From contig CAKTWY010000018.1 in assembly GCA_934630445.1 (NCBI GenBank), forward strand, positions 1 through 21,378: DNA of 21,378 nt, in the 5' to 3' direction. Under the pieces are notes generated by a model. It was not told the DNA's origin, searched no databases, and saw only the letters and a program-made list of their open reading frames with translations. Source of the DNA: an uncultured Eubacteriales bacterium (lineage in GTDB: Bacteria > Bacillota > Clostridia > Oscillospirales > Butyricicoccaceae). Shown piece after piece: positions 20,826 through 20,899 of the stretch (the first letter of the stretch is position 1; every line of letters begins with the position of its first letter). The position numbers were made by a program, and so were the translations under genes.

Positions 20826-20899
20826 CCACATTTTTAAGATGTGGGCAGGATTCGAACCTGCGATTGTTCCGGGGAGTTGAACCCCATCGCTTTCGCGAT
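20826..20899 (-). ncRNA. tRNA-like structured element: two T-arm-like hairpins plus flanking tetraloop hairpins (not a canonical tRNA)
   Basis: Minus strand reads …ATCGC-GAAA-GCGAT GGGG-TTCAACT-CCCC GGAACAATC GCAGG-TTCGAAT-CCTGC CCACA-TCTTAAAAA-TGTGG…. GGTTCGAATCC is the canonical tRNA T-stem-loop, but no acceptor or anticodon arms can be assembled. The strand is inferred from the GAAA and TTCGAAT loops. Confidence 0.3.

Follow-up and report, generated by a model that had tools for sequence, protein, structure and literature searches.

A conserved noncoding RNA with a tRNA-like core upstream of SPFH–RlaP operons in Clostridia

The locus

The DNA analysed here (referred to below as the window) is a stretch of 21,378 nt from an uncultured Eubacteriales bacterium of the Butyricicoccaceae (assembly GCA_934630445.1, contig CAKTWY010000018.1, positions 1 to 21,378), in which a gap of ~490 nt lies between the 3' end of a WYL-family regulator gene carrying a WCX domain and a gene for an SPFH/Band-7 ('slipin') protein, the latter followed directly by the gene for the nucleotidyltransferase RlaP (PF10127). 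The gap holds a series of hairpins resembling parts of a tRNA, all on the minus strand, to which all RNA coordinates in the text and in Table 1 refer. Comparison with related loci revealed that these hairpins belong to a conserved, structured noncoding RNA of about 400 nt, and the reading we favour, at a probability of roughly 0.55, is that this tRNA-mimicking RNA serves as the dedicated partner of the SPFH repair operon.

A tRNA-like core conserved by compensatory change

The core of the RNA consists of four successive elements (Table 1): a canonical T arm (T2), a closed acceptor-like hairpin (AS), a D-arm-like hairpin (D) and a stem with a GAAA-type cap (ACH). A covariance model comprising T2, AS, D and the ACH stem (R1) scored 74 bits in the window and was applied to 80 related loci obtained by a search with the SPFH protein, mostly from Oscillospiraceae, Acutalibacteraceae, Ruminococcaceae and Lachnospiraceae (closest SPFH relative, 82% identity, in Oscillibacter valericigenes Sjm18-20, locus L001, AP012044.1, about 473,700–474,250); it matched 72 of the 80, ~300 nt upstream of the SPFH gene. 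On the resulting alignment, 92.6% of the cells in the core helices were paired and 19 of the 20 pairs had changed on both sides, with 267 compensatory cells against 75 in shuffles. None of 500 shuffles paired as well, and when partner columns were slid only 35–47% of cells were paired.

T2 was the most conserved element of the whole RNA. Across 70 sequences, U54, U55, A58 and U60 of its loop and a purine at position 57 were conserved at 100% and C56 at 99%, the GG of the D loop was invariant, and the base preceding the T stem was C in 77% of sequences, usually facing a G at the start of the D loop. AS adjoins T2 directly, and coaxial stacking of the two (5 + 6 bp) is possible; ACH occupies the position of the anticodon stem after the D arm, its loop being GAAA in 26 of the 70 sequences. 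Taken together, the sequence data support the contention that T2, AS and the D-like hairpin form a tRNA mimic in which the D-loop GG can dock on the T2 loop as in the tRNA elbow, with the GNRA-capped ACH standing in for the anticodon stem. The core has no free CCA end, and the version in the window has no anticodon loop.

A free-energy fold recovered all six hairpins of the region, including the two described below (z = -2.46). It also proposed a closing stem, GGCA/UGCU, which is not conserved, the linker between D and ACH being 2–3 nt in most relatives. The window has a single copy of the T-arm motif GGTTCRAWYCC where 0.10 would be expected, and 9 of 100 shuffles contained one or more; such a single motif is not significant in 21 kb, and the case therefore rests on the comparative evidence.

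An earlier reading of the window, made from its sequence only, had placed four of these hairpins on the minus strand at the positions found here, with 9 nt between the two T-arm-like ones, and had noted that the sequence 3' of T2 folds back on itself (CCACA-N9-TGTGG); the fold is real, as all six AS pairs have changed on both sides. Its judgement that the hairpins cannot be completed into a tRNA or tmRNA agrees with ARAGORN, which detected 0 genes in the window, and with Rfam 15, which returned nothing at the gathering score. It was mistaken in reporting neither a D arm nor an anticodon arm within 100 nt: directly on the 3' side stands a D-arm-like hairpin with its GG (20825–20812), and the GAAA-capped stem in the anticodon-stem place (20808–20795) likewise lies outside the interval it considered. 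Both escaped notice because the elements stand in a permuted order, the T arm being followed by the closed acceptor-like hairpin and then by the D arm. The conservation on which it had made its interpretation depend is borne out, since the same elements were found in the same place, with compensatory changes, in 72 of the 80 loci.

Accessory hairpins and anticodon-like loops

Upstream of the core are two accessory tRNA-part hairpins, H1 and T1. T1 was present in ~55–70% of relatives, its loop being most often TTCAACT (18 sequences), TTCAAAT (12) or TTCGACT (5), and because a sizeable minority of loci lack it, T1 is best read from the sequences as an accessory T-loop hairpin and not as half of a tRNA.

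Many relatives also carry a 7-nt loop of anticodon form, CU-NNN-AA, either on the apex of H1 or on an extra hairpin between T1 and T2. One or two such hairpins per locus lie between GGCAAT and T2 (loci L004–L066; positions 2600–2680 in L057 and 2640–2690 in L005), and the loops included CUGUAAA (9), CUUUUAA (5), CUGUCAA (4) and CUUGAAA (4), giving the 'anticodon' triplets GUA (9), UUU (5), GUC (5), UGA (4), GAC (2) and UUG (2). The window itself has GAAA at the apex of H1 and no extra hairpin between T1 and T2. In five loci the anticodon-like loops prompted ARAGORN to call odd 80-nt 'tRNA-Lys' or 'tRNA-Pyl' genes.

The core is part of a multi-domain RNA of about 400 nt

The core is embedded in an RNA of ~400 nt (about 20982–20587) with at least 17 helices. 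The noncoding region of ~430 nt is kept in blocks with insertions of variable length between them, and is therefore of the pattern expected of a structured RNA; coding capacity in the RNA region was contradicted by in-frame stops in 71 of 77 relatives. Helices of the whole RNA were counted on an alignment of 70 loci (A3), with an all-against-all covariation scan beside it. Outside AS and D, 14 helices with 69 pairs were found, in which 93.1% of cells were paired and 50 pairs had changed on both sides. Compensatory cells over the whole RNA numbered 693 against 209 in shuffles, and slid controls were 36–50% paired.

The 5' domain, closed by P1, includes the near-invariant blocks CACYGCGGTGCAC and GTGTATGCC. 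It is followed by the middle region with the tRNA parts (H1, T1, T2, AS, D, ACH), a variable hairpin region, and the 3' domain, which is closed by P5 and contains the invariant CGGAUACCG. Within the invariant segment ACGGAUACCGCG (20689–20678) of the 3' domain, the heptamer UACCGCG is shared with the T-box consensus; the likeness was treated as a coincidence, there being no match to a T-box model and no terminator alongside.

Table 1. Features of the WYL–RNA–SPFH–RlaP locus in the window, in the order of minus-strand transcription.
Feature	Sequence or content	Position	Strand	Support or remark
WYL-family regulator gene, 3' end	WCX domain	21043..21378, past window edge	-	Pfam WCX
Intrinsic terminator and inverted repeat at end of WYL/WCX gene	followed by TTTTTTTCCGTG	21025..21058	-	strong in terminator scan; arms and T-run conserved
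Putative extended -10 promoter	TGGTAGGAT (TGnTAnnnT)	20989..20997	-	just upstream of P1
5' domain	closed by P1; holds P2, P3, P3a	20908..20982	-	A3 covariation
P1	GCGGGG / CTCTGC	20982-20977 / 20913-20908	-	93% paired; 3/4 pairs compensatory
P2	GGTGC / GCACC	20966-20962 / 20955-20951	-	94% paired
P3	GTACAT / ATGTAT	20947-20942 / 20927-20922	-	99% paired
P3a hairpin	GGA-CAT-TCC	20939-20931	-	98.5% paired
Candidate pseudoknot, 5' strand	GGCAA	20903-20899	-	
H1	ATCGC-GAAA-GCGAT	20886..20899	-	5/5 pairs changed on both sides
T1	GGGG-UUCAACU-CCCC; 4-bp stem, T-loop-like 7-nt loop	20871..20885	-	96% paired; 3/4 pairs compensatory
T2, canonical T arm	GCAGG-UUCGAAU-CCUGC	20845..20861	-	99.4% paired; GC/AU/UA swaps
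AS, closed acceptor-like hairpin	CCACAU-CUUAAAA-AUGUGG	20826..20844	-	95.6% paired; 6/6 pairs changed on both sides
D, D-arm-like hairpin	CCAA-GUGGUU-UUGG	20812..20825	-	89.7% paired; 4/4 pairs compensatory (CCA/UGG, CCG/CGG, CCAA/UUGG)
ACH, stem with GAAA-type cap	UGCC-UGAAAA-GGCG	20795..20808	-	84% paired; 5/5 pairs compensatory
3' domain	closed by P5; holds P6 to P10	20587..20773	-	
P5, 10 bp	GTGCCTTCCC / GGGGAAGCAC	20773-20764 / 20596-20587	-	9/10 pairs compensatory
P6	ATGGA / TCCAT	20714-20710 / 20603-20599	-	4/5 pairs compensatory
Junction; candidate pseudoknot, 3' strand	GCCTTGTC	20703-20696	-	
P7	CTGGT / TTCAG	20696-20692 / 20618-20614	-	5/5 pairs compensatory
Invariant segment	CGGATACCG	20689-20681	-	
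P8		20681-20679 / 20628-20626	-	2/3 pairs compensatory
P9	GGGC / GCCC	20666-20663 / 20644-20641	-	with P10, 7/8 pairs compensatory
P10	GAAG / CTTT	20660-20657 / 20650-20647	-	with P9, 7/8 pairs compensatory
Ribosome-binding site and SPFH/Band-7 ('slipin') gene	AGGAGG; ATG start	19450..20568 (AGGAGG 20568-20563; ATG 20553-20551; stop 19450)	-	Pfam Band_7 1.7e-26; translation
RlaP nucleotidyltransferase gene	PF10127; directly after SPFH	18608..19363	-	Pfam 2.9e-90
GNAT acetyltransferase gene	next real gene past RlaP	17874-18497	+	

Transcription and association with the operon

A putative promoter element of the extended -10 form stands just upstream of P1. In 26 of 41 loci the corresponding position carries the pattern TGnTAnnnT, compared with 14% of shuffles, and in 39 of the 41 it carries TAnnnT, which suggests a transcription start at about 20982. 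Terminator scans of the interval between the RNA and the SPFH gene revealed no conserved terminator, the matches, in 9 of 74 loci, being weak and inconsistent, and the operon transcript would therefore begin with the RNA. Judging from this arrangement, the RNA appears to be continuous and co-transcribed with an SPFH–(RtcB)–RlaP operon from a putative promoter of its own, the WYL gene lying just before it.

The same association emerged when the search started from the RNA. The T2-AS-D sequence pattern gave 49 matches in metagenomes, 6 of them genuine tRNAs, and 0 in viral contigs. A same-strand SPFH gene accompanied 32 of the 43 non-tRNA matches, 280–380 nt downstream or, in a subgroup, at ~960 nt; in three more, with a WYL gene upstream, the contig breaks off too early, one (L083) is disrupted by IS66, and the other seven were on short contigs or matched the model weakly or not at all.

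In the subgroup, all from gut metagenomes (L118, L087, L088, L093, L095, L116 and L129), an extra ORF (open reading frame) of ~250 aa lies between the RNA core and the SPFH gene (2779–3531 in L118), and the SPFH gene is ~960 nt instead of ~300 nt downstream of T2. In L083 (344–2349, 2923–2996), the core scores fully (69 bits), an IS66 transposase and IS66 Orf2 replace the upstream WYL genes, and there is no SPFH gene downstream of the core, so that the locus appears to be a disrupted one.

The usual gene order in relatives is two WYL-family genes, the noncoding region, SPFH, RtcB and RlaP. A WYL gene lies upstream in 62 of the 80 loci; in L014, L004 and L001 it is a tandem of WYL and WYL/WCX genes, the window gene corresponding to the second of the pair. 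RtcB is found between SPFH and RlaP in L014 (4165–5367) and L004 (4055–5323), and is split into two ORFs (4113–4496 and 4518–5384) in L001, while the window operon has no RtcB between SPFH and RlaP (19364–19449). The SPFH protein of the window is described as cytoplasmic, no transmembrane segment being evident in it.

The terminator hairpin of the WYL gene (21015–21060, and the equivalent place in L001–L080) is kept across distant families in sequence as well as in structure, the conserved stretch reading GCTGCGAACTC...GAGTTCGCAGC and then TTTTTTTCCGTG. The inverted repeat lies 40–60 bp upstream of the -10 element of the RNA, and its sequence suggests a possible second role as an operator for the WYL regulators.

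Relationship to known RNAs

At the gathering score, no Rfam 15 family matched the window or 20 related loci. In relaxed E-value mode, the tRNA model reached 20.2 bits in the window (cut-off 29) and YrlA 14.7 bits (cut-off 69), so that the tRNA gene whose detection would have overturned the sequence-only reading did not materialise. As regards a canonical tRNA gene, the T arm UUCRANY is present, whereas a 7-bp acceptor stem of 5' and 3' strands and a 7-nt anticodon loop are absent. The acceptor stem of the weak Rfam tRNA alignment, GAUGGGG/CCACAUC, clashes with the covarying T1 and AS hairpins and is not complementary in relatives; the covarying AS hairpin therefore rules it out. A tmRNA was likewise dismissed, with no ARAGORN or Rfam match.

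The closest resemblance is to YrlA (RF02553), whose tRNA-like domain has the order T arm, acceptor-like hairpin, D arm and adopts an L-shaped tRNA-mimic structure in crystals (PMC4201824; bioRxiv 10.1101/312249). Both RNAs present, in the same order, an optional variable hairpin, a T arm, a closed acceptor-like hairpin abutting it and a D arm; both keep the elbow nucleotides (T loop, D-loop GG and the pyrimidine before the T stem), have no free CCA end and lie within an RNA-repair operon, with RtcB among its genes in relatives. The layout also agrees with the 'dimeric tRNA' model of origin (PMC4201824; bioRxiv 10.1101/312249). Membership of the YrlA family is nevertheless contradicted by the Rfam score, by the absence of the Ro-binding motif GNCGAAN0-1G from 20990–20560, and by the absence of Ro60/TROVE from the scanned ORFs of the window and from the flanking ORFs of L001, L004 and L014. 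In addition, the counterpart of the anticodon stem, made of the paired 5' and 3' ends in YrlA, is in the window a hairpin closed by a GNRA cap, the linker between AS and D is C, G or CG in window-type RNAs and UA in YrlA, and the module of the window sits within an RNA of ~400 nt that has two further structured domains and, as its proposed partner, an SPFH protein.

A prediction by Burroughs and Aravind from 2016 assigns a cognate 'Band-7-associated tRNA' to the SPFH/Band-7 proteins of RtcB repair operons, which, according to the preprint that describes this prediction, was never validated experimentally (bioRxiv 10.1101/312249); the same source mentions that YrlA-like RNAs occasionally adjoin Band-7 genes. 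As far as that citing description allows a comparison, the predicted class shares with our element a tRNA-like noncoding RNA beside a Band-7/SPFH gene in an RtcB/RlaP repair operon. The element in the window differs in not being a cloverleaf, in carrying an additional T-loop hairpin and a closed acceptor hairpin that separates the T arm from the D arm, and in forming part of a large multi-domain RNA; with its permuted layout and closed acceptor hairpin it does not correspond to the phrase 'strongly resembles an authentic tRNA'. One of two interpretations offered in the sequence-only reading, a tRNA-mimic domain of a novel noncoding RNA, thus holds as to the tRNA-mimic RNA, while its novelty is partial, given the 2016 prediction.

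The tRNA-like domain of tmRNA and the 3' tRNA-like structures of viruses also imitate tRNA, within a larger RNA, by a T arm and an acceptor-like stack, but theirs have a free CCA end and are aminoacylated, in contrast to the closed acceptor hairpin found here, and none of the corresponding models matched the window RNA. The large RNAs ROOL, GOLLD, OLE and raiA similarly extend over hundreds of nucleotides with many covarying helices and abound in Firmicutes and gut metagenomes; the window RNA differs from them in its strict tie to one operon and its explicit tRNA parts, and in Rfam 15 it matched none of them by sequence or structure. No description of a large structured RNA at this position was found in the literature searched. 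The element is not a member of the tRNA, tmRNA or YrlA families as those are defined, and is best filed as a fused, YrlA-like variant of the predicted Band-7-associated tRNA-like RNA, embedded in a large RNA.

Related elements beyond Clostridia

The homologous-protein search returned only relatives of at least 67% identity, and distant loci were obtained by tblastn against plasmid records, which included proteobacterial slipins at 33–36% identity. In E. coli (CP061233.1, locus L081, 4660–4997), an element lies between yjbD (DUF3811) and lysC, upstream of a slipin–RlaP-like pair that, like the window operon, lacks RtcB. It comprises, in order, a sigma-54-type promoter TGGCACGCTTCTCGCA, a T1-like hairpin, the T arm TGGGTTCGATTCCCA, an abutting hairpin and a degenerate D element, and the stretch is present, without annotation, in 1632 of 5426 complete E. 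coli genomes. No gene for an enhancer-binding regulator adjoins it, and the activator must therefore be encoded elsewhere; RtcR is a candidate.

The locus of Burkholderia cenocepacia (NZ_CP091013.1, L082, 4470–4740) has a similar sigma-54-type promoter followed by a T-loop hairpin, a minihelix of acceptor plus T arm (4617–4661; 24 bits with the mascRNA-menRNA model, below its cut-off) and a complete 73-nt cloverleaf (4666–4738), which ARAGORN labelled 'tRNA-???' and whose anticodon stem is GAAA-capped like ACH in the window. This cloverleaf fits the published phrase 'strongly resembles an authentic tRNA', and the form seen in Clostridia and E. coli resembles what a fusion of two tRNA-like units in tandem would give, the model of origin put forward for YrlA. 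No homology is claimed between the 5' and 3' domains and the upstream regions in E. coli and Burkholderia, which, compared by eye, have only short motifs (GCAAUG) in common.

Possible function

We propose that the RNA, released from the operon transcript or acting as its 5' part, would be the dedicated partner of a cytoplasmic SPFH oligomer, much as Y RNA is for Ro60. Its tRNA-shaped module, which could be neither cleaved nor charged, would offer a docking platform for the tRNA-recognising enzymes RtcB and RlaP, and the two large flanking domains would hold this module in the SPFH assembly. Several observations weigh against this proposal. The position as a 5' leader without a terminator suits a cis-regulatory role equally well, and the window operon has no RtcB, so that a mechanism centred on RtcB would need to act in trans. 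A substantial minority of relatives do without T1, which can thus not be essential to the function of the core, and the long-range GGCAA/UUGUC pseudoknot is only a candidate, its GCA/UGU pairs being 85% paired with one-sided changes only.

The rival that comes nearest is a cis-acting leader or riboregulator, in which a 5' untranslated region of 400 nt would respond to a signal, for example a small molecule, a repair enzyme or tRNA in a damaged or uncharged state, with the tRNA-like module as sensor surface, and control translation or stability of the SPFH–RlaP mRNA. The RNA does lie directly upstream of SPFH with no terminator between, P5 closes only ~20 nt before the ribosome-binding site, and alternative pairings can be drawn (GCAAGG with CUUGC or GCCUUGUC; GGCAA with UUGC or UUGUC), but covariation backs just one alternative set, P1 with GGCAA/UUGUC. 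A conserved CUUUCC resembles an anti-Shine-Dalgarno sequence, although it is paired, with covariation, to AAAG in P10. The region has neither a terminator/antiterminator pair nor a conserved pairing to the ribosome-binding site, and no riboswitch or T-box model matched it, a T-box or other terminator-based leader having been rejected on the family models and the lack of a conserved terminator before SPFH. The precedent of YrlA and YrlB, both processed out of an rsr-rtcBA operon transcript, favours trans-acting RNAs (PMC4201824; PMC7790460). We regard a leader function as rather unlikely. Slightly less probable still is a decoy, inhibitor or bait for tRNA-targeting nucleases, whose tRNA-like body would bind anticodon nucleases or other ribotoxins, either as an uncuttable competitive inhibitor or, in relatives with anticodon-like loops, by being cut, the fragments then alerting the WYL regulators or recruiting RtcB. 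A mimic without a free CCA end and with a GNRA-capped anticodon stem would suit such a role, and the CU-NNN-AA loops of many relatives read GUA, GUC, UUU and GAC; several of the triplets in relatives match known targets of anticodon nucleases, colicin E5 and PrrC/RloC acting on GUN and UUU anticodons, and WYL domains bind nucleic-acid ligands. A role as competitive inhibitor has also been suggested for YrlA (PMC7790460). However, the window RNA and many others have no anticodon-like loop, so that bait loops would be optional, and a simple decoy needs neither ~300 nt of further conserved structure nor a dedicated SPFH protein. Neither the leader nor the decoy function is mutually exclusive with a role as partner of the SPFH operon.

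Two further explanations have become very improbable. The other interpretation in the sequence-only reading was that the hairpins are a tRNA 3'-half remnant marking an attachment site (attL/attR), with the WYL, SPFH and nucleotidyltransferase genes as island cargo; a perfect T arm without a complete tRNA around it, and the patchy occurrence of SPFH–RtcB–RlaP cassettes (30% of complete E. coli genomes), would be in keeping with it. Yet the element lies within the cassette, between regulator and SPFH, instead of bordering it, and keeps this position in 72 of 80 loci from different families; its stems evolve by compensatory change, unlike a decaying remnant, and ORF domain scans and ARAGORN revealed no integrase or tRNA gene within the window, which also holds no second copy of the motif. 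Chance hairpins or a functionless, decayed tRNA pseudogene, which the statistics of the lone T-arm motif would allow, are equally hard to reconcile with the near-100% conservation of the T and D loops, the excess of compensatory cells in the core and the co-occurrence with SPFH in both protein-first and RNA-first searches.

Beyond the favoured role as partner of the SPFH operon, a bolder possibility, held only tentatively and as clearly the less probable of the two, although a little ahead of the leader function, is that the RNA represents a new class of large structured bacterial noncoding RNA put together from tRNA elements, namely a pair of T arms with a D arm and a closed acceptor, joined in relatives by anticodon-loop mimics, and that it forms the RNA component of a ribonucleoprotein built on a cytoplasmic SPFH cage, a bacterial counterpart by analogy of Ro–Y RNA and vault–vault RNA. 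If so, the RNA would organise RtcB and RlaP around damaged tRNAs, and it might specify the nucleotide that RlaP restores or sense ribotoxins via its bait loops. RlaP extends RNA 3' ends by 1–2 nucleotides, with a preference for nicked tRNA-like substrates and no nucleotide specificity in vitro (PMC12776372), and the RNA bears on how such an enzyme restores the right base, as it does on the in vivo role of RtcB/RlaP systems and on the pairing of scaffold proteins (Ro60, SPFH) with tRNA-like RNAs. The 2016 prediction becomes a defined object with boundaries, a secondary structure supported by covariation and a searchable model, of which the tRNA-like piece is only the core within a much larger RNA. 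For experiments, slipin-positive E. coli (~30% of complete genomes; NZ_CP019267.1, 929,413–929,750, is an example) offers a tractable host.

Annotation of the region

The RNA is widespread in gut Clostridia and missing from Rfam and from genome annotation, and its locus invites several errors, among them the spurious 'tRNA-Lys', 'tRNA-Pyl' and 'tRNA-???' calls in relatives and two ORFs of the window. A 503-aa frame with a TTG start (19450–20961), which would extend SPFH at its N-terminus through the RNA, is considered spurious because 71 of 77 relatives carry in-frame stops; the real start is the ATG at 20553 behind AGGAGG. A 313-aa minus-strand ORF after RlaP (17670–18611) was likewise rejected, with no Pfam match, a low-complexity translation and a position opposite the GNAT acetyltransferase gene. 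The remaining genes of the window encode ordinary metabolic and regulatory proteins.

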